Positions 1 through 62,134 of a DNA stretch of 64,000 nucleotides are shown here, in pieces. Source of the stretch: a virus (taxonomy: Duplodnaviria; Caudoviricetes). Location: IMG/VR virus record IMGVR_UViG_3300029288_000072, positions 1-64,000 of that record; one strand, written 5' to 3'. Position 1 is the first letter of the stretch. Each line of letters begins with the position of its first letter. Made by a program: the position numbers and the translations under genes. The notes beneath the pieces are model-generated. The model made no database searches and had not been told where the DNA came from. It saw nothing but the letters and a program-made list of their open reading frames with translations.

Positions 1-172
1 AAGGGCCAAGTTTACGACCTAACCTCTTTTCAATACAACTGATACACAAAAATCCACGTTCATTATTATGGACTTTATACCATATTTCATTTTTCAGAAA
101 AAAATGTTCCCCAATTGTGGCAGTAGAAACTCCACAATCTAAACAGGGTTTAAGTTTATCTCTCTTTTTCAT
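1..172 (-). CDS. Small Cys-rich (CxxC...CxxC) phage protein, partial, runs off the left edge
   Basis: Manual translation MKKRDKLKPCLDCGVST...FLCISCIEKRLGRKLG; ATG lies 6 nt after a TTGACA-N15-TATAAT promoter. Confidence 0.7.
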   Translation of the reverse strand, partial: MKKRDKLKPCLDCGVSTATIGEHFFLKNEIWYKVHNNERGFLCISCIEKRLGRKLGP

Positions 173-205
173 AATATTATTATATGAGTATAAATGATTT
201 GTCAA

Positions 206-793
206 CTAGAAAGTATATCCGATTTCAGCAAACCATCCGATAGTATCCATACTGGCATTGATATGCTCCCGACCACCATTACTAATATGAGAGTATTCAA
301 CACCAAAACGAGTGTAAAAATCATTATAGTCAATCAGAATACCCAATTGGAAAAAGCCAGAATAGTTAACCCGAGACATTTCTTCCCGTTCTTCAATAGT
401 ATAACTATCTACAAGAACAGTATAAGTATTAATAGTCTCAAACTCATGGATTGTCTGAGGCTGACTTAAAAACATCAATCTCTCATCATTCCAAATAATA
501 GCACCACCTAACCCAACAAAAGGCTTAATATTCTTAAGACCAATATTACCATAAATCCGAACAATGGCCCTAGCTTCAATACCATCAATATTATTAATCT
601 CACACGATCCTAAACCAATACTAAAAGAAACAGGAGTATTTTCTTTTATAGTCATTATATCCAACATTACTCCCATACGAGTAACATCAACATCAAACTT
701 ACCATCATACATAGAATCGCTCATATAGGTTGAAACACCAAACTCAACCGCAACCACAGGAACAACCATAGCCATGAGGATTGCAAAGCGCAT
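206..793 (-). CDS. PagL-like (lipid A 3-O-deacylase family) outer-membrane beta-barrel protein
   Basis: Start re-called at 793 (AAGGAG SD, signal peptide MRFAILMAMVVPVVA); HISNGG matches the PagL H-x-S-N motif; C-terminal beta-signal ...IGYTF. Confidence 0.65.
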   Translation of the reverse strand: MRFAILMAMVVPVVAVEFGVSTYMSDSMYDGKFDVDVTRMGVMLDIMTIKENTPVSFSIGLGSCEINNIDGIEARAIVRIYGNIGLKNIKPFVGLGGAIIWNDERLMFLSQPQTIHEFETINTYTVLVDSYTIEEREEMSRVNYSGFFQLGILIDYNDFYTRFGVEYSHISNGGREHINASMDTIGWFAEIGYTF

Positions 794-913
794 CTCTATC
801 TCCTTATGCCTACAATTATATAAACCAATCCACCTATTGCAACACCTATTTACACTCATTTTGTTCTTTACATTCATCCTAAACATGATAATAAAAGTTT
901 AATTAGTTTAAAA

Positions 914-1138
914 TCATTTATTCAAATAATAATCATATGCTTCTTGATGTTTGTAAACTGGTAGTTGATGATGATTTAGTAGTGAGAAAAAATAAAACTT
1001 TTTCTCTGCATCATTTCTACCATGTTTTTCTGCATACGTTATTGCTAGGTTAATAATTTGTAGTTCAACTGAGTTTAAAGTAATTGGAATATATATTCCT
1101 GGGTCCATCATCCAGTGAATTGTTTTAAATGTAATCAT
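914..1138 (-). CDS. hypothetical protein
   Basis: ORF with AAAGGAA SD before MITFK. Confidence 0.6.
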   Translation of the reverse strand: MITFKTIHWMMDPGIYIPITLNSVELQIINLAITYAEKHGRNDAEKKFYFFSLLNHHQLPVYKHQEAYDYYLNK

Positions 1139-1152
1139 TTTAATTCCTTTTG

Positions 1153-1377
1153 TAAAAAGAACCACGCCAGTACCCACTAATAGGATACTGGCGTGGGTCT
1201 ACCCCCTGCAAGGGGTTGGGTTACTCCACGGTTGCAGCCGCTTTTTTCACCCTGGGGAGCTTATTTCCCCTTTAGCTTTGGTGACTCGCCCATATCAATC
1301 CTGGTTAGAAGGAGGAGGTAGATATGTCGGCACATGGGGCCGGGGCAGTAGGTTAGGCTACCTTCCCTGGGGTCGTC
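1153..1377 (-). ncRNA. Putative structured small RNA 1
   Basis: Own promoter (1384-1411), GC-rich hairpins, intrinsic terminator 1153-1197, no SD-led ORF on this strand. Confidence 0.55.
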
Positions 1378-1415
1378 TCGTATATTATATCAAAGAGTGT
1401 TCGCTTGTCAAGAGG

Positions 1416-1574
1416 TTACTTTACTTCTGGATCAAGAAAGAAATCGACCCATGTCATTTGACTACCATGCTTCTTTTGGTAGATATTAAATTGCTTATTA
1501 ATTAATAGATAAGCAAGTAAGGCGATCATCATACCAAACATAATGGTGAAAATAACCTTAATAATAGACTTCAT
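1416..1574 (-). CDS. small membrane protein
   Basis: AAGGAA SD, hydrophobic N-terminal helix. Confidence 0.6.
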   Translation of the reverse strand: MKSIIKVIFTIMFGMMIALLAYLLINKQFNIYQKKHGSQMTWVDFFLDPEVK

Positions 1575-1584
1575 TTTGTTTTCC

Positions 1585-1782
1585 TTAAAGTGGCAAGCGT
1601 TCAGCAATAGCAGTTTCAATATAATCAAGCGTTGCGGAAATAATAATATTACCATCCTTATCAACCAAATTAGCGTAAATAAAATGAGACCGATTGCCCT
1701 TTCCACGACGAATGTTTACAATCGTACACCCAACATAATCTTGAATAGGATTAATTGGATGTGGGTATGTTTTCACACTCAT
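1585..1782 (-). CDS. hypothetical protein
   Basis: Promoter and AAGGAG SD. Confidence 0.7.
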   Translation of the reverse strand: MSVKTYPHPINPIQDYVGCTIVNIRRGKGNRSHFIYANLVDKDGNIIISATLDYIETAIAERLPL

Positions 1783-1835
1783 GGGGTTCTCCTTTTATGA
1801 GAATCATTATATAGAGTATTTGTCAATGTCAAATC

Positions 1836-2048
1836 TTAAACTGCAATTCCCTTTTCGTCTGCATATTGACGAAGTTTTGAAACTTTATCATTCATAGCAT
1901 GATCATCATTAGCCATTGCATACCCAACAACCCGACCACATGCAAAAATTGCTACATTACTACTTGAAACAGATTTAAACCTAACATGCTCATCAATTCT
2001 GATATATGCAATATTTATCAAAGAATTAAAATCTGCATCGGTGGTCAT
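1836..2048 (-). CDS. hypothetical protein
   Basis: Promoter and AAGGGG SD. Confidence 0.7.
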   Translation of the reverse strand: MTTDADFNSLINIAYIRIDEHVRFKSVSSSNVAIFACGRVVGYAMANDDHAMNDKVSKLRQYADEKGIAV

Positions 2049-2084
2049 GTTTATCCCCTTGTAAGAATCATTATATGGATTGAA

Positions 2085-2285
2085 TCAGTCTGTCAAGCTA
2101 CAACCACAACAGGGACAATAATTAAAACGAATATAAACATCCGGTTCATTATGGGAATAAACCTTGGGATTATAGAAAATCCCATCCTCATTAATACTCA
2201 AACTTTCATCATCACCAACCGGATTATTAAGATATAAAGAAAAACTCTTACCAACAAACTCACAACCATCTGCATGCTTACTCAT
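2085..2285 (-). CDS. small Cys-containing protein (FNYCPCCG)
   Basis: Promoter and AGGAG SD. Confidence 0.65.
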   Translation of the reverse strand: MSKHADGCEFVGKSFSLYLNNPVGDDESLSINEDGIFYNPKVYSHNEPDVYIRFNYCPCCGCSLTD

Positions 2286-2435
2286 TCGTTTCTCCTGCAA
2301 TCATTATATGCCAATCAAATCAATTGCAACCACAAAATATTTTACACTCATCATAAACAATTTTGTTCTTTACATTCATCCTAACCATGATAATGAGTCT
2401 AAACTATTGTAAACTAATGAGTTAGTAAATGAGTA

Positions 2436-2661
2436 TAAAAAGAACCGCCCTTCCTATTCTTTTAGGAAGGACGGTTTCTACAATCCTGCCAGATTGTTAC
2501 CCATGATTAGGTTGGCAGTCCTAATCTTGGCTGATGATGATATATTCCTTGGGGGGCGCTAGCCAACAAAAGCCGTATACCCCTGTAAAATATATTCTCA
2601 TCTTTAGGGGTCGGTATTCCCGAATATGTCCCCTTTTGTGCAGAGGGTTGCTGCCCTCATA
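2436..2661 (-). ncRNA. Putative structured small RNA 2 (kissing-loop pair)
   Basis: Own promoter (2668-2694), terminator 2436-2478, two hairpins with complementary loops CUGCCA/UGGCAG. Confidence 0.65.
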
Positions 2662-2673
2662 TGCTATATTATA

Positions 2674-3051
2674 TCAAGTCTTTACGATTGTCAAGGGTTT
2701 CTTATAGCGAGCCAACACCCTTTCTCTCCAAGTCTTTGAGTATTCTCCCATAGGTGCAGTAAGATTCTTGAGAAACTTTTTAGGACAATCCCAATAGTAT
2801 GGACCCATATCCTCACTTAGAGGCTTATATCCAACTTGGCCCTTTGCAGAAAACAACAGGTCAAGATGAATATATCGGTCCATCTTATCACCTACAGTGA
2901 CTTCCATTTGCTTCCACAGACGGTTTCCACGGAGGGAAAACATCAAGCACTTGACATGGACCGGAATACCGGCTGGATTGATATGAGATTCATCCTTGGT
3001 CAATTCCCGAATCAGATTCTCACGGGTTCCAGGCTGATAGTAGGTTCCCAT
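2674..3051 (-). CDS. conserved mobile-element protein (resembles DUF6927)
   Basis: GYKPLSEDMGPYYWDCP motif and WRERV. Confidence 0.55.
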   Translation of the reverse strand: MGTYYQPGTRENLIRELTKDESHINPAGIPVHVKCLMFSLRGNRLWKQMEVTVGDKMDRYIHLDLLFSAKGQVGYKPLSEDMGPYYWDCPKKFLKNLTAPMGEYSKTWRERVLARYKKPLTIVKT

Positions 3052-3094
3052 CGTTTCCCCTTGTGAGAATGATTATATGGATTGGATAAGAATG

Positions 3095-3289
3095 TCAAAT
3101 GAACTTTTCAATCGTCTTAACCTTGCCACACTTGGAGCAAGTAAGAACAATAACTATCTTCTTACGAGTAAGTTCGTACATATCACATGCACGCATTGGA
3201 CCTTTATATCCAACCTTCCTCATATGTTCAACTACACTTTCCCCAATATTTTCAGAAACCTTATTCCACTGATGCTTGCAGAAAAACAT
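3095..3289 (-). CDS. small Zn-binding protein
   Basis: CKHQW...CSKCG; promoter and SD. Confidence 0.65.
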   Translation of the reverse strand: MFFCKHQWNKVSENIGESVVEHMRKVGYKGPMRACDMYELTRKKIVIVLTCSKCGKVKTIEKFI

Positions 3290-3333
3290 GACGGTCTCCT
3301 TATGCTAATGATTATATGGATTGGATAAGAATG

Positions 3334-3573
3334 TCAACCACGAATCAGAGGCATAACAGCAAGAACGATCCACCAAATACCAAACACTACACTGGAAACT
3401 CCACCAAGGAAACTCATAATCATACAAACAATATGACCAGTAAAAATATTACTTGTCTTGCTAAAATCCATATTCTTTGAAATATTGTTAAACCCAATTG
3501 CCATATTCAAGAAACAGAAAATAATAGAAAACACAAAAACACCTAGACTAATAAAAAACAGAATGGGAATCAT
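3334..3573 (-). CDS. two-TM membrane protein
   Basis: Two hydrophobic helices; promoter and SD. Confidence 0.7.
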   Translation of the reverse strand: MIPILFFISLGVFVFSIIFCFLNMAIGFNNISKNMDFSKTSNIFTGHIVCMIMSFLGGVSSVVFGIWWIVLAVMPLIRG

Positions 3574-3619
3574 GGTATATTCTCCTTGTAAGAATGATTA
3601 TATATGAGTTTAAACCCTG

Positions 3620-3811
3620 TCAACCCCTATTTTTCAGTTCCATACAACAATAATGAATCTCATCCTCATAATATCCATAATTAGGATTTTCAGGATAAGC
3701 GTTAATAGCTTCCCGTGCATCCTTAATAATAAACCGCAATTGTTCAACACTTTTATTCTTGAGAGACTTCATATATTCCGAATGATTCATCACCTTAGTA
3801 GGATGACCCAT
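3620..3811 (-). CDS. hypothetical protein
   Basis: Start re-called after promoter and SD. Confidence 0.7.
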   Translation of the reverse strand: MGHPTKVMNHSEYMKSLKNKSVEQLRFIIKDAREAINAYPENPNYGYYEDEIHYCCMELKNRG

Positions 3812-3855
3812 GTCTTTCCCCTTGTAAGAATCATTATATGAGTGTTCCACCGTTG

Positions 3856-4035
3856 TCAATAGCGACTTTGACTATGCTCATTGTGATCCGCATTGCCATA
3901 ATCCCAACGTTCTGCCCCTAGTTCCTTCGCCTTTTTAATAATAACAGCATGCTTATTGCCATCATAATTAGTCCAGGTATGCCATACCAATCGCCCACTA
4001 ATGTAAAATGCAGCCTTAGTCCTATATGCTATCAT
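3856..4035 (-). CDS. hypothetical protein
   Basis: Start re-called after promoter and SD. Confidence 0.65.
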   Translation of the reverse strand: MIAYRTKAAFYISGRLVWHTWTNYDGNKHAVIIKKAKELGAERWDYGNADHNEHSQSRY

Positions 4036-4137
4036 GCTTGTCCCCTTGTGCCATACAGTATATGCATCATGAACACTTGTCAACCCCTAGGATTTCCCTT
4101 TACATCCATCACAAACATGATATACGAAAAATGAGTG

Positions 4138-4303
4138 TAAAAATATACCGGATTTCTCCGGTATAAATCCCCCTCTAGTATATCAGGGAGTCGGGGCACG
4201 TACTCGCTTTCGCCGCCCTTTCGCTAGTAGATGGTGTTCTACTAACTACCGCAAACGACCTACCGGCTAAATAAAAGCCGCGCACTCGCTATTCGTTTGC
4301 TAC
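4138..4303 (-). ncRNA. Putative structured small RNA 3
   Basis: Own promoter (4310-4337); stems GCAAACGA/UCGUUUGC, CGGCU/AGCCG, UAGUAGA/UCUACUA; terminator 4138-4165; no ORF. Confidence 0.6.
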
Positions 4304-4333
4304 ACTTGTATTATATTGTCAATGATGCGCTTG

Positions 4334-4495
4334 TCAAGGACAATGAACAATAATACACTTGATAATATAAGCAAAAGCGCAAATACCTGCCACAATCAGA
4401 CTAGAAGAAAGAATACCACCTAGTCCGTTGCGGGGAATGCAAACAAATACCCCCAATGTGGCAAAAATCAGAGAAAGAATAATTAGAGCAATCAT
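4334..4495 (-). CDS. small membrane protein
   Basis: Two hydrophobic segments; promoter and SD. Confidence 0.65.
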   Translation of the reverse strand: MIALIILSLIFATLGVFVCIPRNGLGGILSSSLIVAGICAFAYIIKCIIVHCP

Positions 4496-4539
4496 TGTTG
4501 TCTCCTTGTGTGATTGATTATATTGGTTTCCAGCCCTTG

Positions 4540-4902
4540 TCAATACTCACTTGCCAGCATCAACACCCCATCAGTATAAAAGAACTTGATTTCATTTACG
4601 GACAAATCAGTGGCATCATATTCCTGACGATACAGAACCTTACAATCACCATCTTCGTAGGTCATAATCGCACGACGATCCTTCGTCACGTTCACCTTGA
4701 CGCAAACAAAGTCTTGACTCTTGACATTCTTGTGATGCGTCAGGACCGCCAGCATGTCAGTAATAACCCAACCAGCATGCTTGTGGACAAACTGAACGCC
4801 ATCCGTGTACCGAATATTCCGATACATCGGATGATAAAACATATTCTCCGATCCGAAAAACCCCGAAAGGTCCGCATCGGTGAATCGCTTGTTGCTCTCC
4901 AT
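4540..4902 (-). CDS. DUF6876-like protein
   Basis: YTDGV...AGW...TDL...EIKFF...VLMLASEY pattern. Confidence 0.6.
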   Translation of the reverse strand: MESNKRFTDADLSGFFGSENMFYHPMYRNIRYTDGVQFVHKHAGWVITDMLAVLTHHKNVKSQDFVCVKVNVTKDRRAIMTYEDGDCKVLYRQEYDATDLSVNEIKFFYTDGVLMLASEY

Positions 4903-5057
4903 GTTTGTCCCCTTGTGTCTCTCATTATATGAACCAAACAAGCAAATCAACCTAATTCTTTACACTCATTTTGTTCTTTACATCCATCACAAACATGATA
5001 TTGCACAAATGAATGTAAAATAAAAGGATAGGTATTAACCTACCCTTTTATGATTGT

Positions 5058-5399
5058 TCAATGTTCACAGACCATTATACTGCATTTTGTAGTCCACTTA
5101 GGATACTTTTTAAATCCACCCATTATATGAATGCTAATATGTAAATTACACGATTCAACATAATGACTTCGTTGAAAAATATTACTATCAAATAAATACG
5201 CATCTTTTAAATCATTAATTAGGTAGCAAATCTGATTTCTCCACTCGTTAAACGATACAATATGTCCATTATTATGCTTACGCAATTCCACCCATGCCTT
5301 GTAGAGATTGTATCCCTCTCCATCTTCCCAATTCAACGTGCGAATCTTTTCCTTAAACTCATTGATAGCATCAATAGCAACCAACCGGATGGGACGCAT
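5058..5399 (-). CDS. hypothetical protein
   Basis: Promoter, SD and terminator. Confidence 0.7.
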   Translation of the reverse strand: MRPIRLVAIDAINEFKEKIRTLNWEDGEGYNLYKAWVELRKHNNGHIVSFNEWRNQICYLINDLKDAYLFDSNIFQRSHYVESCNLHISIHIMGGFKKYPKWTTKCSIMVCEH

Positions 5400-5590
5400 G
5401 GTTGTCTCCTTGTGCCTCTCATTATATGAACCTCACAAGCAAATCAACCTATTTCTTCCCCTCTCATCCCCACTATTGACATCCATCAGAAACATGATAA
5501 TGAGTCTAAACTATTGTAAATATTATAGTAATAAAAAAATCCCCTAGTATTTCTACTAGGGGATACTCCGCTCCACTTCCTACTGGAAGA

Positions 5591-5836
5591 TTAGTAATCG
5601 TCTTCTGGATCATACTTTCCACGGGGCTTGGAACGAGGGCCATGCACCACTTCCATATGCTCCCGCCGGTATTCCTCCATCGCCACGGCAAGGATATGCC
5701 GCTTGTCACCCTCTGAAATATCACCACAATAGTCGGTGATGACTTCTCGCTCATTCTTGAACCCTGACCCCTTGGGATCATCCCAATAGTCAAAGAGGTT
5801 GTCAATCAGAGCATCGTCAATAGTCATGGTGGTCAT
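5591..5836 (-). CDS. acidic hypothetical protein
   Basis: SD AAGGGAG; terminator at 5540-5563. Confidence 0.65.
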   Translation of the reverse strand: MTTMTIDDALIDNLFDYWDDPKGSGFKNEREVITDYCGDISEGDKRHILAVAMEEYRREHMEVVHGPRSKPRGKYDPEDDY

Positions 5837-5881
5837 TTTCTCCCTTTCTAGGAGGATTTGTTATGCGTTTGATTATATGAC

Positions 5882-6085
5882 CTAGTGTAAATTGTCAAGT
5901 AGTATTTCCTGTCGTCTTGCCATTCTGATCCAAGTTCTTGCCATCCAACGATTTAGTATTTCATCAGCAATTTTTCCACACAAATCAGGAGCAATCGACT
6001 TGCGCCACCGATTCTTGAAAAGAGTCAATGCATATGAACGTTGTAAAGGTATTGAAACTAACTCACTATCTATAATTCTTGCCAT
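5882..6085 (-). CDS. hypothetical protein
   Basis: Promoter and SD. Confidence 0.65.
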   Translation of the reverse strand: MARIIDSELVSIPLQRSYALTLFKNRWRKSIAPDLCGKIADEILNRWMARTWIRMARRQEILLDNLH

Positions 6086-6156
6086 GTTTGTTTCCTTGCT
6101 CCATACATTATATACCTACAATATACAAATCAATATATTTTTAAACTCGTTTAATA

Positions 6157-6558
6157 TCAATACCAGTGTATTTTATTTTTTTGTTCAATTCTATAACCAC
6201 TATCATGCATTATATCTCTAGTTGATGAAATATTCTTAAAAAGATTCCATACTTCAAGGTTAGTTTGATCTAATGTTTGGATAAACGCCCATAGTTTTTC
6301 ATCATAAGGAAGAATAATTCCACCAGGAATTATCCTTTTACCATTTACATCAAATACTGGTTTTACACTATCATAAAAAAACTCACCATCAATTAACTTA
6401 GCAACTACAGGAGGAGAATCTTTTTCATTATCAATTAGAATAAAAAGATTTCCAATCTTTTTTGTCCACACAGGTTCCCAATTATGTCTAATAGTTTCAA
6501 CATAAATATTAGGAGTCTTAAATAATTTTTTCCACAATTCTTTGAGGAACATGTTCAC
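6157..6558 (-). CDS. hypothetical protein
   Basis: Promoter and GGAG SD. Confidence 0.7.
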   Translation of the reverse strand: MNMFLKELWKKLFKTPNIYVETIRHNWEPVWTKKIGNLFILIDNEKDSPPVVAKLIDGEFFYDSVKPVFDVNGKRIIPGGIILPYDEKLWAFIQTLDQTNLEVWNLFKNISSTRDIMHDSGYRIEQKNKIHWY

Positions 6559-6665
6559 TCCCGTATGATAACCATTATATACTGATTATACACAAATCAA
6601 CCGGTTTCTTTATACTTGACATCCATCAGAAACATGATAATGAGTTTAAATTTATTAAATGAGTA

Positions 6666-6924
6666 TAAAAAATAAACCCCAAGGATCATAACTCCTTGGG
6701 GTCTATACCCTTACGCTCAAACGCATCTATGGGGCGAACCCCTCCGCTCGCGTAGCCGATTAGGGAATAAGTGACGACTTCGGAGGAATCTGGCAACCTT
6801 CCTAGTCATCCGTGGCTTACGGTTCCACGATCCGTATTTAGGTCACTTTCAAGATTAAAGCCTTTATTAATATATTCACTTCTGCATAACTAACTCCTTT
6901 ATTCATGGGTGATATGCTTGTTGA
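6666..6924 (-). ncRNA. Putative structured small RNA 4 (pseudoknot; MQK minigene)
   Basis: Own promoter (6931-6958), H-type pseudoknot at 6811-6836, terminator 6666-6702. Confidence 0.6.
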
Positions 6925-6954
6925 GCCTACATTATATCTACCACTTTACACTTG

Positions 6955-7173
6955 TCAAGATGGTTTGTTATCCTTCTCAAACCCATATTCAATAATCCCT
7001 AATTTTTGGTCTGCATCATCTTCTGCCGCTTCTTCAGTTGGAAAAGGGCCATCCGTAAAATCTTCATCAGGATAAACACCCATATTATCCTGCCACCAAT
7101 AAGAGGCAGAAAAATTACCCCAATAATAACCATCCTCAAACTTACGAACAACTACAAAGTTGTCAGCACTCAT
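6955..7173 (-). CDS. acidic hypothetical protein
   Basis: AAGGA SD. Confidence 0.7.
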   Translation of the reverse strand: MSADNFVVVRKFEDGYYWGNFSASYWWQDNMGVYPDEDFTDGPFPTEEAAEDDADQKLGIIEYGFEKDNKPS

Positions 7174-7175
7174 GT

Positions 7176-7403
7176 TTATTCCTTATTATTATAAAAAATT
7201 ATACCATCAAGTTTACTAATACCATTAGGAGGAGTAACACTAATATTATCAACATTAACCTTTTTAAGGAAACATTTATCAATTAAATAATCTACAATCT
7301 GAAACATCTCTGGAATATAACCATGCTCACCACGATAATGAATGGTGACATTTCCGTTTTTTGTCTTATTATGACTATTGACTAACGGAAAAAACGCAGG
7401 CAT
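7176..7403 (-). CDS. hypothetical protein
   Basis: Promoter and SD. Confidence 0.65.
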   Translation of the reverse strand: MPAFFPLVNSHNKTKNGNVTIHYRGEHGYIPEMFQIVDYLIDKCFLKKVNVDNISVTPPNGISKLDGIIFYNNKE

Positions 7404-7435
7404 GTTTTATTCCTTTTCACTCATTATATTTACAC

Positions 7436-7657
7436 TCATTTCAAGTCAAGTAAAATACAATCAGCACAAATACCTTTTGCTTCCCGATCAATATGATTAA
7501 TTAATACACAATCTTCTTGTGCCTTAGTTCCCGGTTTCAAGGTGATAGGACTATAATGAACTACCGGAATATTATCAAACGTGTTTAAAATAATAGGATA
7601 TGCAGAACCCCAATTATTAATATCCTGACCCTTAGTAATCAAATGATATGTTTTCAT
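7436..7657 (-). CDS. hypothetical protein (probably leaderless)
   Basis: ATG 7 nt after TATAAT. Confidence 0.55.
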   Translation of the reverse strand: MKTYHLITKGQDINNWGSAYPIILNTFDNIPVVHYSPITLKPGTKAQEDCVLINHIDREAKGICADCILLDLK

Positions 7658-7692
7658 TTGTTCCATTATATGTTCCTTAAAACACTTGTCAA

Positions 7693-7950
7693 TTATCGCT
7701 TAGGATTATTCTGCTCTAATTCCCTAATCCTTGCCCTAAGTCTAACACTTTCTAACAACATTTGATTATATGCGTCAAGCATCCTTTTATCCGGATTAGT
7801 ATTTACAACCTTTTCAACATATTCCTTCTTAACTACTTCTTTAATAGGTGCATTCTTCTTACCATAATATGCACCAGCTATAAATGAAATGGTCACATAG
7901 ACCACCGTAATAATAGCATACTGACAAATTATTTTGCTGTCGTATCTCAT
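7693..7950 (-). CDS. membrane-anchored coiled-coil protein (probably leaderless)
   Basis: TM helix followed by coiled coil; ATG 7 nt after TATAAT. Confidence 0.6.
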   Translation of the reverse strand: MRYDSKIICQYAIITVVYVTISFIAGAYYGKKNAPIKEVVKKEYVEKVVNTNPDKRMLDAYNQMLLESVRLRARIRELEQNNPKR

Positions 7951-8103
7951 GCAAATCATTATATCATCCTAAATACCTTTGCAATCACTTTCTTACTACT
8001 TGACATCCATCATAAACATGATATAGACAAAATGAGTGTAAAAACTAATAGGTTAGTAAATGAGTATAAAAATTAAAGGGGCAGTTTTGCCCCTTTAATC
8101 TGT

Positions 8104-8469
8104 CTAGAAGTTATAGTCATAAAACTTATAGGCAACACCCATCAGAAAGGGAGTACCCTTCATCGCCCAACCACGCTTGGTCAGACGAATCTTGGTCTTG
8201 ACCGGATTGGCAGGAATCGCCAGATCATACTCCAATTCCCTCTGGTTTGTGCAATGAGCACAGAACCCACCAGGAACAAACTCTGGCTTGATCGTCTCAC
8301 ATAAAGTCGATTCCAGGGGAATCACGGTGGCAGTCTTGCCACTCTTAGAAACCTCCACCACCATGTACGGATGGCGATCCGTGTACCCGCAATAGGTACA
8401 ACCGAGACCAGGAACCGCCGCCAGGGTGCGGCTGGGGTTGGGGTCAGTCTTGGTCGGGTTAGTCGGCAT
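8104..8469 (-). CDS. phage hypothetical protein
   Basis: Promoter, AAGGAGG SD and terminator. Confidence 0.75.
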   Translation of the reverse strand: MPTNPTKTDPNPSRTLAAVPGLGCTYCGYTDRHPYMVVEVSKSGKTATVIPLESTLCETIKPEFVPGGFCAHCTNQRELEYDLAIPANPVKTKIRLTKRGWAMKGTPFLMGVAYKFYDYNF

Positions 8470-8623
8470 GTCTGCCTCCTTGTACGACTAATTATATGCT
8501 CTTTCCAATCCTGTCAATCCCCCAACTTTTGTATAACCTTCCACCGATTTCCGTTTACATCCATCCCCAACATGATATAAACCTACTACTTCAATAGTAA
8601 ATGAGTATAAAAATAAATGGTCC

Positions 8624-9004
8624 TTATGGACCATTTACCACCACCCGATACAACTGCCTTGCATACTTGGGCATCTTCCGATGCAAGAGAGCCATACCCT
8701 TCGGACCCAGCGGAGTCGCGTACAATAGCGTTTTTCCGGCTGCATGTGCATTCCAATGAGAAATGATGCGCTGGGCTAGGATCGACAATATCTTTGCGTC
8801 TACACCCGAAAAACCAACCCCATTGTAATCAACTGTCGCTTCCTTTGATACTTCCTCCATAGTCTGAAACTGAAACACACGAACACACCCCTGCATCGCC
8901 CATTTAGAATCGTTCGCTAACTTATTCTTAATAAAACTAATAGCCTCCTTCTGGCTCATCGCCAAAATGCGGTCCCTAATAGCGGCTTTACGTTCGTTGC
9001 TCAT
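8624..9004 (-). CDS. phage hypothetical protein (QT..E...NGVGF.G.DA motif)
   Basis: Promoter, leaderless start. Confidence 0.75.
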   Translation of the reverse strand: MSNERKAAIRDRILAMSQKEAISFIKNKLANDSKWAMQGCVRVFQFQTMEEVSKEATVDYNGVGFSGVDAKILSILAQRIISHWNAHAAGKTLLYATPLGPKGMALLHRKMPKYARQLYRVVVNGP

Positions 9005-9172
9005 ATCAAACTATTGTATAACCATCCTACTCATGTCAAGATCCTAAATCATCCTTGACATTCTTAAATACCATGATAACTACCTCAATGAGTTTAAAAA
9101 AACTAATACATTAGTAAATGAGTGTAAAAACTAACCCCCTCCAAGTTTCCTTGGAAGGGGTGACAATCTTTG

Positions 9173-9868
9173 TCAGTCCGCTTCTACCATGAGGCTCGCA
9201 ACCTCGGCAGGCATAACCGTTTCCTTGTCGATGGTAAGACGGTCATAGTTGCCATCCTTGAGTGACAGCATCTTGTATGGCAACATACCATCCTCGCAGT
9301 AGGTCTCTACTTCCCCCTTCGCAATAGTGAGGGGACGGCTGTTGGTCGCCTTGTATTTGCCTTCAACGTGGACCTTGCGAGACACTTCAAGCACCGAAAC
9401 CATGATGCTAGCAACAGTCGGAACCCCGTCAGCATCCAGCACCGGCACCTTGACCTTGCGACCATCTACTACTCCGTCAGTAGTGACAAGGTGGCACTTG
9501 ATCCCCTGACCGCTATGGACGTAGCACCGAGCATGGCCTTGTCGATACCCGTCTGACTCCTTATCCCCTGCGAGAGTCTTGGTCAGACTCTCAACTACGA
9601 GGTTGCGAGCCTCCTCATGGAGCGCATCAGTAGCAACGTACCCCTTCGCACGTTCCAGCATACGCTGGCAACGCTTGCCATAAGAGAATCGACTAATGAA
9701 GTTGATAGTCGAAACCCCAGAAACGATGCACTTGGGATCACTGGTGCCACTGACATAGTTGTGGACAGTGGCAAAACCACCATGCCGACAACTATCCAGC
9801 ACGTTGAGCGCATCCAGTGTGCGCTCATCAATGTTTACAAGCGTTCCGTCGAGTGTGATGCGTGGCAT
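9173..9868 (-). CDS. hypothetical protein, 231 aa
   Basis: Promoter, AAGGAGG SD and terminator 9135-9161. Confidence 0.8.
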   Translation of the reverse strand: MPRITLDGTLVNIDERTLDALNVLDSCRHGGFATVHNYVSGTSDPKCIVSGVSTINFISRFSYGKRCQRMLERAKGYVATDALHEEARNLVVESLTKTLAGDKESDGYRQGHARCYVHSGQGIKCHLVTTDGVVDGRKVKVPVLDADGVPTVASIMVSVLEVSRKVHVEGKYKATNSRPLTIAKGEVETYCEDGMLPYKMLSLKDGNYDRLTIDKETVMPAEVASLMVEAD

Positions 9869-10023
9869 GCTTGCCTCCTTGTACGACTCATTATATCAAC
9901 CAAAATCAGTTTGCAAGTATTCTTCTGTTTACAATCGTCTTCATATTTCTACTATATTAGTTTACACTTGACATCCATCTAAAACATGATAATACAAAAA
10001 CTAATCCATTAGTAAATGAGTAT

Positions 10024-10295
10024 AAAACAAAACCCCGATGGGTGATCATTCCATCGGGGTCGTTGGCAGGCTTTCGCCTTTGGTTTGGTTGCGATCCTGC
10101 ACCAGCGGTGCCCCTACGCTTTGCCATGCGTGGGAGTTTATTGCATATCCTCCGCAGCCCATCTCCCAAAACTTGCGGATTAAGCCTATGACATTTGACG
10201 GGCAGGAGTCAGCCATAGGCAACTAACCCCTATTGCCCTTCATAATCGTCGCTTTAACATTTGCCCATCCTTATAGGTTAGGCGTTCATGTGTAT
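10024..10295 (-). ncRNA. Putative structured small RNA 5
   Basis: Own promoter (10302-10328); stems GCCUAUG/CAUAGGC and CCGCA/UGCGG, AGGC-GAAA-GCCU tetraloop; terminator 10024-10060. Confidence 0.6.
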
Positions 10296-10409
10296 GCCTA
10301 AATTATATCAACAATCTCAACTTGTCAATACCCATGTTTACACTTGACATCCATCATAAACATGATAAACGTAAATGAGTGTAAAACTAAAAGAGTGGTT
10401 TCCCACCCT

Positions 10410-10640
10410 TTAGTTTAATGGCCATTGATAGTCAATATACATTAGACGCAATATATCGAATATCTCACCAAAATCTGTCGAATTATACAACCGATCAAAA
10501 TTGTAAGGAGCAGATACAGGCTGATTCCGAATAAACTTATTGAAAAACCATTGACCAACTCGTAACGTCTTACGAGGATCATCTTCCTCATATTCCGTCA
10601 TTATGTTGCGAAAGGATGGAATTGGATGTTTGTAGCTCAT
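10410..10640 (-). CDS. hypothetical protein (leaderless)
   Basis: MSYKH start 7 nt after TATAAT. Confidence 0.65.
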   Translation of the reverse strand: MSYKHPIPSFRNIMTEYEEDDPRKTLRVGQWFFNKFIRNQPVSAPYNFDRLYNSTDFGEIFDILRLMYIDYQWPLN

Positions 10641-10803
10641 GATAACTATTATATCAACTACATAAACATTACAAGTGTAAACTTTACACTTGACATCCAT
10701 CATAAACATGATAACCATATTTAAATGAGTTTAAAACTAATAAGTTAGTAAATGAGTGTAAAGAAAGGGGATAGTTGTTCCCATCCCCTTTGTCGGTTTC
10801 CTA

Positions 10804-11622
10804 TTAAACCTCTACTTCCTGGACAGCCTCGACCGGAACCGGCTTGCCCGCCTTGAGAATCTTATCGACTGCCACCATAATAGCCTTAGCACTCTTTTCG
10901 GGAATCCGTTGGCCACCATGCAGGCTATTCCAATGCTGGATATAACCACGGGACTCGTCGCCACCCGCCAGACCTAAGACTTCCCCCACAATGTAAGCAA
11001 CCGTTTCCGCTTCAATTTCCCTAAGACTACGCTCCATCGTAGGATGTTCGGGGTTCCAATCGTTTTCCCCCGTATGACCCAGCACAATATGGGCAATCTC
11101 ATGGATCAGAGTCTTGGCAGGATGCATAGCAATCGGGGAAACTGCCACCTTGCGACCCTTGGCGTATCCCTGGCAGTTGCCATTTACCATATCATACGAA
11201 ACCCGCTCAATCCCCATCTTGTCCAAGCAACGATCCCCCTCCCAATCAACCGTATGAGTCTCATGCTTGAAACTATCAACCTCGCCACTCACAACCTCCG
11301 TCTGCGACAATGCAAACCACAGACTGCGGAATGTGAACCCAATCATACGAGGATCATCATTCTTTTCCCCCTTGCGTGCGAACAACGGCATGCACAAGGT
11401 CAGACCTTTGCTACCCTTGCGAACAACGCGACCCATCGTTTGCCAACGCTTGAAAGTAGCAATCGGACCAACTTCTATCCCCCTAATCTTCATCTGATGC
11501 ATAGCCAATAAACTATTCATAAAACTATAGTCGTGAAACATACTATAACATTGGGCAATAATGCCCGGCTTGCTAATAGCCTCGTCCAACAGAGTCTCAA
11601 ACGGGATCGGGGTGTCGTTCAT
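10804..11622 (-). CDS. ArdC-like antirestriction protein (ssDNA-binding N-domain plus zincin-like HExxH domain)
   Basis: YSFMNSLL, ATFKRWQTMGRVVRKGSKG, FALSQT, HEIAH, EIEAETVAY, SRGYIQHW. Confidence 0.8.
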   Translation of the reverse strand: MNDTPIPFETLLDEAISKPGIIAQCYSMFHDYSFMNSLLAMHQMKIRGIEVGPIATFKRWQTMGRVVRKGSKGLTLCMPLFARKGEKNDDPRMIGFTFRSLWFALSQTEVVSGEVDSFKHETHTVDWEGDRCLDKMGIERVSYDMVNGNCQGYAKGRKVAVSPIAMHPAKTLIHEIAHIVLGHTGENDWNPEHPTMERSLREIEAETVAYIVGEVLGLAGGDESRGYIQHWNSLHGGQRIPEKSAKAIMVAVDKILKAGKPVPVEAVQEVEV

Positions 11623-11819
11623 GTCTCGCTCCTATGCTATGGATTATATACCTTTCTTTCCACAGTCAATAGACAATCACCTTATCTCCCTTGTATAAAT
11701 CTCCATAAAATTTCTGTTTACATCCATCATAAACATGATAACTACCTAATTGAGTGTAAAACTAATAAGTTAGTAAATGAGTGTAAAACTAGAGGGGTGG
11801 TTTCCCACCCCTCTAGTCG

Positions 11820-12002
11820 TCAGACCATGACGCGCAACGCTTGCGCCTTGGCCAGCAGACTCCGCAACACGATGCGAGTAGCACCATCGTTGCGAACCTC
11901 CCAGCACAGCCGAATCTTATGATTCAGCCGATCAGTTGCAACGCTACGAGCGTTCTCACAACCAGCATAGGCGTTCAGGGTCGGAATGGCGATGGCAACC
12001 AT
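11820..12002 (-). CDS. hypothetical protein
   Basis: Promoter, AAGGAGG SD and terminator. Confidence 0.65.
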   Translation of the reverse strand: MVAIAIPTLNAYAGCENARSVATDRLNHKIRLCWEVRNDGATRIVLRSLLAKAQALRVMV

Positions 12003-12139
12003 GGGTGCCTCCTTGTACGACTCATTATATTAACCTAAACACCCTGTCAACCATTACCTTTACACTCATCTCCATTATTGACATCCATCATAAACATGAT
12101 AACTACCTAAACGGGTGTAAACGAGTGTAAACTATCCCA

Positions 12140-12325
12140 CTACTCCTGTGGATCCGGTCCTGGCAACTTACTATCACAATACTCAATTATAGACCTAATA
12201 AACTCAGGACCAGCATCTAATACCTTGCGATCATTGAACGCAATAGTATTCTCATACCCTTCACAACATTTCTTGTATTTCTTGCCCGATCCACACGGAC
12301 ACAACTCATTCCTTCCTATCTTCAT
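12140..12325 (-). CDS. SEC-C metal-binding motif protein
   Basis: [20 protein letters not shown]. Confidence 0.85.
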
Positions 12326-12326
12326 A

Positions 12327-12416
12327 CTACCACCACCCCATAAAGCAACCAATGCCATAGAGGTTCACTACAATCGCAAACCCCAAGTAAGGCGCGGCAT
12401 ACGCTAACTGACGCAT
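12327..12416 (-). CDS. 29-aa hydrophobic peptide [29 protein letters not shown]
   Basis: Promoter 12434-12460 and AGGAG SD; below the ORF-track cutoff. Confidence 0.6.
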
Positions 12417-12524
12417 TCGTTTCTCCTGCAACCATTATACCACTCCATAACCATTGTCAATAACTAATATTACACTTTACATCCATGAGTAACATGATAT
12501 AGACCTACAACTACTAATTACAAA

Positions 12525-13010
12525 CATAAATTACCGTAATTACTACCTATCCGTAATTTCCTATGAGTGTAAATTACCGTAATTTCCATAATTACCGCTA
12601 TACCCCCCCATAGTAGTAACCACCCCCTCCCTATTATACCCCCACTTACTACCCCCCTCAAATGTCCAAAACACAGTATTAGGAGGGGGGTACTAAGGGG
12701 GCAATTCCACCGTAACTCAAATTTTTATACATTTAAACTTATTTAGGATTTTAAACTCATTTAGGGTCATTTACAATAATTTAAACTTATTTAAACTCAT
12801 TTACAATAGTTTAACCCCATTTTAAATTAGTTTAATTACTTTATAGTCCGTAATAGGGACAAAATACGATTTTAAATTGGTTTAAAATATGGGAAAAATT
12901 TTTTGGGGTGGGGATTTACAATGGTAGGGTTTATTATAGTCCGATAGTTAGGGAAATTTAGGTATCGTTGGATATTGATTTTTGGGAAAAATTTTTATGG
13001 GGTGGGTTTT
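12525..13010. other. Non-coding junction: candidate replication origin or genome terminus
   Basis: AATTACCGTAAT repeats, ACCCCCCTC/GAGGGGGGT inverted repeat, tandem TTTAAACT(C/T)ATTTA, local C-rich to G-rich switch. Confidence 0.5.
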
Positions 13011-13173
13011 TATTTCCAGGGGTTTTATGGTTTTTTATATAGTTGTTACATAGTTTATTATTAGATATAGTAATATAGAGGAATAGGAGGTTAATACAGT
13101 ATAGGAATAGGATTAACAATATAAAGGAAGCGAGCATGAGGTTTACAATCATTTATATTATTTTTTTCTTTCT

Positions 13174-13518
13174 TTAGAATATTTGTCTAATATCAATGAA
13201 GCTAATATCCAGGACTTTTGGATTCCATCCTGTTTTACCATTTTTTTGACTAGATACGACTGCATTAGGGTGTTTAAGTAGGACGGCGTATCTACCGAGT
13301 GGTTTATCTGGATATGTTGTATCTGGGTCGATTCTTTGGTAATTTATAGTAGTGATGATATCATTAAGTAGTGTTTTTAATAGTGAGGCGTTTTCTATCC
13401 AAGGGGTAGCGATGATATCTAGGTCTCTTTTAGTTGATCCGTGTATAGCGATAGTCCAACCGTGTGAGTTAGCGACAGATTTGATAGTATCTAGTAATAT
13501 TTTATCTTTTTTATTCAT
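13174..13518 (-). CDS. putative minimal nucleotidyltransferase-like protein
   Basis: HGSTKRDLDII (GS...DxD) motif. Confidence 0.5.
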   Translation of the reverse strand: MNKKDKILLDTIKSVANSHGWTIAIHGSTKRDLDIIATPWIENASLLKTLLNDIITTINYQRIDPDTTYPDKPLGRYAVLLKHPNAVVSSQKNGKTGWNPKVLDISFIDIRQIF

Positions 13519-58960: not shown

Positions 58961-59755
58961 ATGATACACCCAACATTGGGAGATAGAATGAAACGTTATG
59001 AAGAAGTTTTTAATACTTCTTTAATGCGTAGAACACCAGTCATTATTAGATTGGACGGAAAAGCATTTCATACATATACAAGAGATAGAAAGAAACCAGT
59101 AGATGAAAATTTATCTTTGGCTATGCAATTTGCAACTCAATATCTTGTTAAAAATATTCAGGGGTGTAAATTTGGGTACACACAATCAGATGAAATTAGT
59201 TTATTATTGACTGATTATGATACATTAGAAACTGATGCATGGTTCGATAATACTATTCAGAAAATAGTTAGTATATCCGCATCATATTGTACATTGATTT
59301 TTAATAGACAATTACATTCACTAGATATGTTGAAAGCATCATATGATCCCAAAATACAAATAAAACCACCTAAAGATGCATATTTTGATTCTAGAGCATT
59401 TAATCTTCCTAGAGAAGAAGTATGTAATTATTTTATTTGGAGACAACAAGATTGTAGAAAAAATGCTATATCTATGGCAGCACAAGCAAATTTCTCTCAT
59501 AAACAGTTGCATAAAATGAAGTCTGGTGATAAAATCGCAATGTTATCAACAGTAGGAATTGATTTTGAAACAGTATATCCGAAATCATTTCGGTATGGAG
59601 CAGTATATCATCGTAAACTAGATGATTATGGTATGCATGTTCGATTTCATACTGATTGTGATATTGAAATACCAGACTTTAAAGAAGATAGAGAATATAT
59701 TAACCGATTTGTTTATTCAGAAAGTGAAACAGATGCAAAACAAGAGAATATTTGA
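58961..59755 (+). CDS. tRNA(His) guanylyltransferase Thg1-like protein
   Basis: RLDGKAFH, YTQSDEISL, FDSR, YFIWRQQDC.KN. Confidence 0.92.
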   Translation: MIHPTLGDRMKRYEEVFNTSLMRRTPVIIRLDGKAFHTYTRDRKKPVDENLSLAMQFATQYLVKNIQGCKFGYTQSDEISLLLTDYDTLETDAWFDNTIQKIVSISASYCTLIFNRQLHSLDMLKASYDPKIQIKPPKDAYFDSRAFNLPREEVCNYFIWRQQDCRKNAISMAAQANFSHKQLHKMKSGDKIAMLSTVGIDFETVYPKSFRYGAVYHRKLDDYGMHVRFHTDCDIEIPDFKEDREYINRFVYSESETDAKQENI

Positions 59756-60030
59756 AATAGATTACTATTATCTATTACAATTTAATAATCTTAAAACATT
59801 GCTTGTTGAATCTGAAAGCAGAACCCAGGCAGAAGATTATTGTAGAAAATTGGAATATCCAAATAAAATAAACATAAAACATATCAAATACCATTGGGCA
59901 AAATAGAAAGGAAAACATGTTTAAATACATCAAGTTACTCAAAAAAGAATTTTTATCTTCAAGAAATAGAAATAAGATATTATCTTATGATTTTAATCAA
60001 ACACAAGAAGAAATTGACAATTCATCTGTT

Positions 60031-61337
60031 CTGTGGCAAGGAAACCCACTACCTTTAGGTGGTGGGAGGAATTACCACATCCTCCTTTCTTAATAGTGTA
60101 TCACTCAACATTATACAACATATTGTATAATATAAAAATAGTTTGTCAAATCTTATTTTCCGGATATAAATAACTATGTATTGAAGAAATAATGAGGCTA
60201 TAATGAAACTAGCAACGAGAGTAAAACTACTAGCAAACAAAAGTGAGAAAGAACAACTCACTCAAGTTATGATTGCTACTAATAGAGCCTCTAATTGGGT
60301 TGCTGAAGTTGCATTTAATAATAAAACTTTTGGTCAAGTTCAACTTCACAAACTCGTATATTACGAAATTAAGCAAAGGTTTAATCTTTCTTCTCAACTT
60401 GCTGTAAGATCAATAGGTAGAGTCGTAGATGTATATAAAAATAAAAAACAAAGAAGTAAAGTTATAAAATTTGATGAAATGAGTGCAATTGATTATGATA
60501 CTCGCAATCTTTCAATTAAAAAAGATAGTGAAATTTCCATAACAACTCTTGGAAAAAGAATTAAGTTACAATATAGAAGTCGTAAGCCATTGGAAACTTA
60601 TGAATTATGCACCCAAAGTGAATTGAGTTATGATAAAGCAAAGGGGAAGTTTTATGTTAACTTCTTCCGCATTGAAAACGAAAAAGCAAATGATGAAGTA
60701 AAAGATTTCCTCGGTGTAGATTTAGGTATAGTGAATCTTGCTACTTGTAGTGATGGTGAAGTGGTAAGTGGTGAACGAGTAGAAAGTTATAGAAAGAAAA
60801 TAACTTTACATAAAAGTAATTTACAAAGTAAAGGTAGTAGAAGTGCAAAGCGTAGATTAAAGAAAATAAGTAAAAAAGAAGCAAGATTCAAGAAAGATAC
60901 GAACCATTGTATAAGTAAGCGTTTAGTTCAAAAAGCAAAGACACTTGGAGTTGGAATCAAATTAGAAGATCTAAACTTCAAGAAACAAGTTCCGCAAAAA
61001 GGTTGGACTAAAGAATGGAAAGATAATAATGCAAGAAAGGGTAAGTGGGCATTTGGTCAATTAAGAAAATTTATTGACTACAAGGCTAAACTTATCGGTG
61101 TTCCAGTGTTATATATTAATCCTGCTTATACGAGTCAAATGTGTAGCAAGTGTGGTCATACTCACGAAGAAAATAGATTAACTCAAAGTGAGTTTAAATG
61201 TATTTCTTGTGGATATAGTGAAAATGCTGATTACAATGCTGCTATTAATATTTCAAGGGCTGAAATCAACCAGCCTATTGTAGCGACTCGCAAGAGTTAG
61301 TTACAAACCCACTACCTTTAGGTGGTGGGTAGTTGAT
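60031..61337 (+). mobile_element. IS200/IS605 (IS1341-type, tnpB-only) element, same family as 40307-41577
   Basis: Same subterminal hairpins and right end. Confidence 0.85.
60203..61300 (+). CDS. tnpB: TnpB
   Basis: RuvC motifs and Zn finger intact. Confidence 0.92.
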   Translation: MKLATRVKLLANKSEKEQLTQVMIATNRASNWVAEVAFNNKTFGQVQLHKLVYYEIKQRFNLSSQLAVRSIGRVVDVYKNKKQRSKVIKFDEMSAIDYDTRNLSIKKDSEISITTLGKRIKLQYRSRKPLETYELCTQSELSYDKAKGKFYVNFFRIENEKANDEVKDFLGVDLGIVNLATCSDGEVVSGERVESYRKKITLHKSNLQSKGSRSAKRRLKKISKKEARFKKDTNHCISKRLVQKAKTLGVGIKLEDLNFKKQVPQKGWTKEWKDNNARKGKWAFGQLRKFIDYKAKLIGVPVLYINPAYTSQMCSKCGHTHEENRLTQSEFKCISCGYSENADYNAAINISRAEINQPIVATRKS

Positions 61338-61342
61338 TTAGA

Positions 61343-61660
61343 ATGTATGTATTAGTTAGACGAGATATCTTGCCTTTAGTACATTGTGCTGTACAAGCCA
61401 GTCATTCTGTCGCCGAATTCGTATTCTATCACTATAATGATAATACAAAATTGTGGTTGACTCTTGAAAAAACAATGATAATATTGGAAGCATCGCAAGA
61501 GCAAATAGAGGAAAAAATGAAGTGGTTCGCAGATAGACATATGAATTATCAGCCATTTTGGGAACCAGATATGTCTAATGCTATGACTGCAGTTGCATTC
61601 CAACCGATTAAAACCTCATTTGCAAAAGAAATATTTTCTGATTTAAAACTTTTAAGTTAA
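61343..61660 (+). CDS. Pth2-like peptidyl-tRNA hydrolase family protein
   Basis: YVLVRRD...AVQASH...EPD....TAVA. Confidence 0.7.
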   Translation: MYVLVRRDILPLVHCAVQASHSVAEFVFYHYNDNTKLWLTLEKTMIILEASQEQIEEKMKWFADRHMNYQPFWEPDMSNAMTAVAFQPIKTSFAKEIFSDLKLLS

Positions 61661-61670
61661 AGGAATAATA

Positions 61671-62117: not shown

Positions 62118-62134
62118 AAATAAGGATATACGTT

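Follow-up and report, generated by a model that had tools for sequence, protein, structure and literature searches.

The window analysed here, bases 1–64000 of the 198,442-bp IMG/VR contig IMGVR_UViG_3300029288_000072 (estimated completeness 84%), derives, judging by its sequence, from a large uncultured phage of the T4 type, henceforth referred to as phage A. Towards its left end lie five promoter-to-terminator units that lack a conventional open reading frame (ORF) and that we have named RNA1 to RNA5. Comparison with a related phage indicates that RNA2, RNA3 and RNA4 are real structured RNA genes, each of its own undescribed family. In our best explanation, which we hold with moderate confidence, the five units would be cargo slots of an early-gene array of the promoter-early stem-loop (PeSL) type, with RNA2, RNA3 and RNA4 as genuine RNA genes, RNA1 as a leader and RNA5 as either an RNA gene or a small mRNA.

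A sequence-only reading of this DNA had described five unrelated cassettes, each with a consensus promoter, a GC-rich and hairpin-dense body and a U-tailed terminator, and had proposed that they encode structured small RNAs. The five units are borne out, and all of them lie on the minus strand, which had been left unstated. Each opens with a perfect promoter (TTGACA-N15/16-TATAAT). RNA1 (1153–1411) has its promoter at 1411–1384, a predicted transcript of ~225 nt at 1377–1153 and its terminator at 1196–1162; the same three elements are found at 2694–2668, 2661–2436 and 2476–2443 for RNA2 (2436–2694), at 4337–4310, 4303–4138 and 4165–4144 for RNA3 (4138–4337), at 6958–6931, 6924–6666 and 6706–6672 for RNA4 (6666–6958), and at 10328–10302, 10295–10024 and ~10060–10030 for RNA5 (10024–10328). 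The terminators of the first four are U-tailed with stems of 9–14 bp, and that of RNA5 was read by eye. Spurious ORFs in terminator loops aside, none of the five carries an ORF of at least 30 amino acids (aa) led by a Shine-Dalgarno (SD) sequence, while the neighbouring cassettes all have a strong SD-ATG and an ORF. The units are unrelated to one another, single-copy in the 198-kb genome and GC-rich (0.45–0.56 versus ~0.30–0.40 nearby). No known RNA family could be recognised in them either: Rfam 15 gave no match at the gathering score, their bodies gave none at E≤5, and ARAGORN found neither tRNA nor tmRNA.

The description as hairpin-dense needs qualification. Whole units do score well, but mostly on account of their terminators, and once these are removed only RNA2 clearly beats shuffled sequence (z = −4.5, versus −1.7 for RNA5, −1.5 for RNA3, −0.2 for RNA1 and +0.3 for RNA4). 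In RNA2, RNA3 and RNA5 folding is better on the sense than on the antisense strand. A genome-wide heuristic scan for ORF-less promoter-terminator units recovered RNA1, RNA2 and RNA5 and no others; having found just three of the five known units, it has limited sensitivity.

Relatives of phage A were reached through the proteins of the array. One of them, phage B (L006, a 12.4-kb contig), comes from an ENA sample that also yielded an identical copy of phage A, and was found again in a JGI metagenome (L017/L019, 99.9% identity to L006). The arrays of A and B share synteny at their two ends, with shuffling in between, and eight gene pairs show protein identities of 31–80%, with third codon positions 58% identical. 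Phage B has homologs of RNA2 (L006:9337–9575, promoter 9304–9330), RNA3 (L006:4414–4655, promoter 4381–4407) and RNA4 (L006:8058–8330, promoter 8024–8051), each of them ORF-less and with its own perfect promoter and terminator. Body identity between the two phages is 78% for RNA4, 75% for RNA3 and 69% for RNA2, compared with the 58% of third codon positions, and the gaps between the copies (1, 2, 5, 7, 20 and 47 nt, etc.) are not multiples of three and thus incompatible with a shared reading frame. Conservation is patchy, invariant blocks of 15–24 nt alternating with stretches of 41–55% identity, a pattern typical of what folded RNAs would leave. G-U occurs several times among the pairs that are kept, in agreement with an RNA transcribed off the minus strand. 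ORF-less conservation combined with compensated pairs, the generic signature of a structured RNA gene, was found for RNA2, RNA3 and RNA4, on two lineages only, and not for RNA1. The proposal of structured small RNAs accordingly stands for these three, which are ORF-less in the relative, change more slowly than third codon positions and carry compensatory changes, but not for RNA1, which is split in phage B, and doubtfully for RNA5, which may be an mRNA. Covariation among homologs, which had been suggested as a check, was found as compensated stems in RNA2 and RNA3, whereas the conserved blocks of RNA4 are invariant and RNA5 has no homolog in phage B or the other loci fetched.

In RNA3, 10 of the 33 pairs have changed on both sides with 100% of the cells paired, six of them outside the terminator; controls in which the partners were slid by 1–3 columns gave 0–1 such pairs. 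Three compensatory pairs fall in the P1 stem (8 bp, 4300–4293 with 4258–4251), which encloses the 5′ domain, and two in a second stem. Because this fold was derived from the A/B pair itself, we repeated the test on the minimum free energy fold of A alone, which had 10 compensated pairs versus 1.2 expected under random placement (P<5e-4); with B as the reference there was one broken pair versus 11 expected. Two variable segments (4289–4261 and 4247–4223), at 50–59% identity and with insertions of 20 and 47 nt, form hairpins in place in both phages between invariant anchors, an invariant 20-nt block spans 4226–4207, and a stem joins 4190–4185 to ~4173–4168.

The folds of RNA2 in A and B, predicted separately, consist of the same hairpin series, with five hairpins corresponding one-to-one: a (2658–2643), b (2623–2611), the long c (~2600–2535), d (2526–2505) and e (2497–2480). 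Thirteen pairs have changed on both sides, seven of them outside the terminator, compared with 1–5 in the slid controls. Hairpin a reads GAGGG/CCCUC in A and GAUGG/CCAUC in B around a similar loop, hairpin b UCGG/CCGA and GUGGG/CCCAC, and hairpin d GAUUAGG/CCUAAUC and GAUGAAG/CUUCAUU with the loop CUGCCA kept. Hairpin e is invariant, with the loop GGCA, which widens to UGGCAG on opening of the closing pair. Since the loop of hairpin e is complementary to that of hairpin d, a loop-loop contact between the two is plausible but unproven.

The conserved blocks of RNA4 (15, 11, 16 and 21 nt) are invariant and for that reason uninformative on pairing. Between such blocks the variable hairpin H2 (~6811–6772) has been recoded in place, with an aligned identity of 0.41; conserved hairpins lie on either side, H1 within 6834–6808 and the long 3′ hairpin H3 at 6754–6708, the apex of which has exchanged one stable tetraloop for another (GGGG-UUCG-CCCC in A, GGG-GAAA-CCC in B). 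An H-type pseudoknot considered for H1 (6836–6811) was unsupported, one A-U pair being U·C in B and three G-C pairs remaining. Near the 5′ end the sole conserved feature is AAAGGAGU, followed by an AUG and, two codons later in A and one codon later in B, a stop. In A the SD is at 6900–6893 and the minigene AUG-CAG-AAG-UGA at 6887–6876; in B the codons differ (AUG-CGG-UGA) and the position is kept.

What we regard as new is this RNA cargo: exact-pattern and BLAST searches left the three families unmatched in Rfam 15, GenBank phages, IMG/VR, a JGI metagenome scan and GTDB. In IMG/VR no relatives were found with the array repeat, the ligase protein, two first-guess patterns for RNA2 and RNA4 or the conserved blocks of RNA2, RNA3 and RNA4 as queries, and the JGI metagenome scan with the array repeat returned only phage B (L017/L019) and chance matches. 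Among GTDB genomes the RNA4 block had no match, and an 18-mer of RNA3 had 62 chance matches in GC-rich genomes, none extending past the seed. Megablast and blastn detected no DNA-level relatives among GenBank phages, and an exact look-up of a 125-aa protein retrieved identical contigs only.

The five units are embedded in an array (840–13170, minus strand) of ~30 single-promoter cassettes, and over the ~13.2 kb down to base 1 every gene is on that strand. The cassettes are organized into modules of one to five promoter-ORF units with one closing terminator, separated by a repeat of ~70 nt; RNA5 is a module of its own, alone between two repeats. Perfect TTGACA-N15-19-TATAAT sites in the window number 26 versus 0.5 expected by chance, and terminator-like sites 24 versus 10. 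This is the architecture of the PeSL cassettes of T4-type phages, in which ORFans sit between promoter and stem-loop elements through which they are inserted, deleted or replaced (Arbiol et al. 2010, PMC2839356; Comeau et al. 2014, PMC4122927). Here too strong early promoters of the sigma-70 type and stem-loop terminators frame small units that are swapped between relatives at these joints, and the hallmarks found are a consensus promoter per unit, associated terminators and a variable region of a T4-type phage in which cargo has been replaced. A further PeSL criterion is the excision of mini-circles during infection (PMC2839356). The suggestion that the units were the best candidate for an undescribed system was therefore too strong, the array being a known architecture with RNA cargo (PMC2839356, PMC4122927). 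It departs from the published cases in two respects. Their cargo consists of ORFans, and small or noncoding RNAs as cargo did not turn up in a text search of PMC2839356, whereas RNA occupies three to five of the slots here; and the inter-module repeat is an addition that lies outside the PeSL description.

That RNA2, RNA3 and RNA4 are treated as cargo in the same way as the protein genes is supported, their neighbours varying among A, B and L005, a 565-nt contig from a further lineage. The gene that precedes RNA2 in phage A ends in L005 in the same promoter, which there reads into a protein gene in place of RNA2, and in phage B a 66-aa ORF stands between that gene and RNA2. RNA3 comes after the gene of a 53-aa membrane peptide in A, and after a DUF6876 gene in B. 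RNA4 is likewise preceded by different ORFs in the two phages; the one in A, of 72 aa, has no homolog in phage B, and its homologs elsewhere are in unrelated phages or tRNA clusters, without RNA4. Given these differing neighbours, the RNAs move as independent units. Two homologs of the 72-aa ORF (60%; L052:728–943 and L053:163–375) sit among clustered tRNA genes on other phage contigs, and beside the former is a tRNA-like element with a T arm but no ARAGORN call (L052:960–1085). More distant arrays (L007–L009) share the TTGACA-N15-TATAAT cassette style.

Several observations weigh against reading RNA2, RNA3 and RNA4 as RNA genes. The body of RNA4, like that of RNA1, gains nothing in stability over shuffled sequence. 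Exact matches in the RNAs run to 19 nt, a length that protein genes equal or exceed (up to 38 nt). Each RNA is represented by two lineages, so that covariation is pairwise, and the consensus folds themselves come from that pair of sequences. Finally, RNA2, RNA3 and RNA4, and RNA1 as well, are each the final promoter unit ahead of a module terminator; as last units they would also form the 3′ ends of read-through mRNAs, which makes a role in cis possible.

In such a role the units could be leaders that attenuate the gene following the terminator, or 3′ untranslated region (3′ UTR) or processing modules that stabilise the read-through mRNAs of the module that they close. As an account of the whole set we consider it unlikely, but it is where RNA1 fits best. 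Directly behind the RNA1 terminator, with no promoter between, come the SD and ATG of a 74-aa ORF (914–1138, minus strand) of an 'LPLN...PxYKH' family. The homologs of this ORF are at L006:11240–11461 and L008:5012–5242; in L008 it also follows a promoter, a ~100-nt leader and a terminator without a second promoter, and in phage B the array repeat sits between the RNA1 terminator and the ORF, so that the family lies behind a terminator-bearing leader in three lineages. RNA1 itself is divided in phage B. Its promoter and first ~110 nt match L006:10516–10654, and its last ~130 nt with the terminator match L006:11019–11155 (nhmmer E 1e-4); between the halves phage B has a second perfect promoter (10689–10715) and a 96-codon ORF (10737–11027), the 5′ half thus being a leader upstream of an ORF. 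From this split, RNA1 of phage A is composed of a leader and the last few coding bases, 3′ UTR and terminator of a cassette, either A having lost the ORF or B having gained it. Given the promoter-leader-terminator-ORF layout common to A and L008, RNA1 is best read as a leader that probably attenuates ORF 1138–914, and we rank a functionless remnant second.

For RNA2, RNA3 and RNA4 the same reading fares less well. They have their own perfect promoters in both phages, the genes upstream of them differ between A and B, and their terminators are followed not by an ORF but by the array repeat and a new promoter; RNA5, for its part, is isolated between repeats.

A few further features of RNA1 can be recorded here. 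The leader retains a CCUCCUU tract in A and B, which we take to resemble the anti-SD at the 3′ end of 16S rRNA. The ORF between the halves in phage B has an in-frame TGA (10923–10925) with downstream sequence that is still protein-like, which may point to readthrough, to recoding or to a recent nonsense mutation. A match to the DUF2815 RNA of Rfam (E=2) over the RNA1 terminator and the following SD was judged an architectural echo only, and an antisense ORF behind a plus-strand AAGGAGG was discarded, having just 10 codons and, by eye, no matching start in B. The genes upstream of RNA1 and RNA3 (1416–1574 and 4334–4495) encode hydrophobic peptides of 52–53 aa with one membrane helix, reminiscent of type I toxins, and a 77-aa two-helix peptide (L006:10279–10512) precedes the RNA1 leader in phage B; we have taken these toxin-like peptides as coincidence.

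It is also rather improbable, in our estimate, that the units are base-pairing small RNAs (sRNAs) of the Hfq or ProQ type, with conserved 5′ seeds regulating host or phage mRNAs. Their anatomy would suit this (own promoter, 165–270 nt, Rho-independent U-tailed terminator), the 5′ ends are kept between A and B (the first 11 nt of RNA4 and the starts of RNA3 and RNA2) and RNA4 has an AU-rich linker. The terminator, however, also closes protein cassettes in this array and does not discriminate; no target came to light, the RNAs being complementary to the genome of the phage itself only at chance level, and conservation resides in internal loops, junctions and long multi-helix folds, more elaborate than those of typical sRNAs. 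Guide RNAs of TnpB (omega-RNA) were also discarded, as the five RNAs have no similarity to the rest of the genome, including its three tnpB loci, and their 3′ ends are terminators.

Less probable still is that (mini-)coding explains the units, RNA5 being the mRNA of a 56-aa protein coupled through two upstream ORFs (uORFs), and RNA4 acting through its minigene, in the manner of the lambda bar minigenes, by drop-off of peptidyl-tRNA. In RNA5 an SD-led uORF of six codons overlaps a second six-codon uORF by AUGA, and the 56-codon ORF (10216–10046) is open and has a codon score like that of the GC-rich cargo genes and above its shifted frames, a measure that does not discriminate for GC-rich cargo. 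Its stop falls in the terminator loop, and it lacks the strong SD that all the neighbours possess; matches among 1.8 billion representative proteins amounted to two tandem-repeat ORFs, each aligned over many weak stretches, which we do not consider homologs. RNA5 may thus be an orphan RNA or a small mRNA. In RNA4 the bar-type layout (SD, AUG, one or two sense codons, stop) is present at 6900–6876 and at the aligned site in L006, the position being conserved and the codons not, and the phage encodes a peptidyl-tRNA hydrolase of the PTH2 family (61343–61660). Most of the conservation, on the other hand, is downstream of the minigene in folded blocks. Unlike the bar minigenes, which it resembles in sequence layout, that of RNA4 is inside a larger conserved folded RNA.

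Least probable of all, and by our reckoning very unlikely, are empty or decayed cassettes, transcribed but functionless remnants of leader and 3′ UTR after loss of an ORF: RNA1 of phage A does correspond to the ends of a cassette that still holds a promoter and a 96-codon ORF in B, the 5′ end of RNA2 is like a degenerate version of the leader and SD of the L005 cassette, RNA1 and RNA4 are without excess folding energy in their bodies and RNA5 is without a homolog, but RNA2, RNA3 and RNA4 are ORF-less in both lineages, conserved above third codon positions and compensated in their stems, as would not be expected of neutral remnants.

We thus return to RNA2, RNA3 and RNA4 as RNA genes within a PeSL-type array. 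The array would be transcribed leftward by the host sigma-70 RNA polymerase, and the three would be made as discrete RNAs of ~165–260 nt ending at their own terminators. They would then most likely act in trans, as stable folded RNAs that serve a bound protein as decoy, sponge or scaffold, with the invariant loops and junctions as contact surfaces and the freely recoded stems as scaffolding; RNA4 would in addition load a ribosome on its conserved SD-AUG-(1–2 codons)-UGA minigene near the 5′ end, and RNA1, in which a leader runs into a 3′ UTR with its terminator, would probably attenuate ORF 1138–914. Within the case of real RNA genes, we give an abundant early folded RNA bound by protein around one third of the weight, on the basis of the invariant loops and junctions, the free stems and folds that go beyond a seed plus terminator. 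The anatomy of the units, their lack of coding, their conservation and covariation and the shuffling of cassettes can be read from the sequences; that the units are transcribed, act in trans, have a protein partner or counter host defences is inferred, and for the decoy or sponge role, which had been proposed from the outset, this is purely so. More speculative, and doubtful in our view, is the idea that the three form a mobile early counter-defence or takeover set, exchanged among phages as protein anti-defence genes are, each a folded mimic titrating a different host RNA-binding sensor or nuclease, with the RNA4 minigene trapping host tRNA as peptidyl-tRNA and the phage PTH2 enzyme giving protection.

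Other structured phage RNAs offer partial parallels. Phage T4 makes small stable RNAs (species 1 and 2, i.e. RNAs C and D, from the tRNA region) that are early, structured and ~120–140 nt long, and that are processed from the transcript of the tRNA cluster. Those described here are likewise structured RNAs of a T4-type phage, but there is no tRNA gene in the whole 198 kb and each has its own promoter and terminator. Phage RNA decoys, such as the pseudo-ToxI antitoxin repeats and the RNA anti-CRISPRs (Racr), are strongly expressed and bound in place of a host RNA. They mimic a recognisable host repeat, whereas no repeat structure or host template is visible in our RNAs, and the likeness is conceptual only.

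The array has other peculiarities. The inter-module repeat, with 12–13 copies in the window between 850 and 12520 (e.g. 6602–6669 and 10338–10387), is promoter-like on the plus strand (TTGACATCCATCAnAAACATGATAAT), aimed back into the preceding terminator, and also bears AATGAGTRTAAAA boxes; phage B has five copies and the distant arrays L007–L009 none. Most protein cassettes in window 1–13200 have an unusual promoter spacer of 15 nt and a common leader (TATAAT-cattctcACAAGGxGA-ATG), and the promoters of RNA1, RNA3 and RNA4 have a 16-nt spacer with TTGACAAG(C/T)G and GATATAAT in common. The head of the array (12520–13170, minus strand) is ORF-free, with G-rich runs, several AATTACGGTAAT-like words and, at 12750–12830, a run of TTTAAACTCATTTA-like units with a periodicity of 10 nt. 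It is partly kept in phage B (window 13012–12780 versus L006:668–900, 70%) and may be a control or origin-like region.

Elsewhere the contig carries a gp32-family gene, three tnpB loci and genes for a LAGLIDADG endonuclease, an ArdC-like protein, a radical SAM protein, a Thg1-like enzyme and a NAD-dependent ligase. Genes of the RNA-repair type are clustered at the right end of the window (58961–64000): a Thg1-like tRNA-His guanylyltransferase (58961–59755), a 2H/LigT-like phosphoesterase (61671–62117) and the NAD-dependent ligase (62135 onward), together with the PTH2-family hydrolase mentioned above and, in their midst, a tnpB gene (60203–61300). At the opposite end, a 195-aa protein (206–793) that is kept in phage B has a weak match, below the Pfam cut-off, to PagL-like outer-membrane lipid A deacylases, a hint of a Gram-negative host.

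The solid part of the original observation, three RNA genes, is now separated from RNA1 and RNA5. The three RNA families are new, their ends are defined and their loops conserved, phage B offers a natural counterpart for comparison, and at 165–260 nt they are small targets. The small early proteins encoded in PeSL arrays, for many of which a part in host takeover or anti-defence is likely, are viewed as a swappable toolbox, which conserved folded RNAs would extend.

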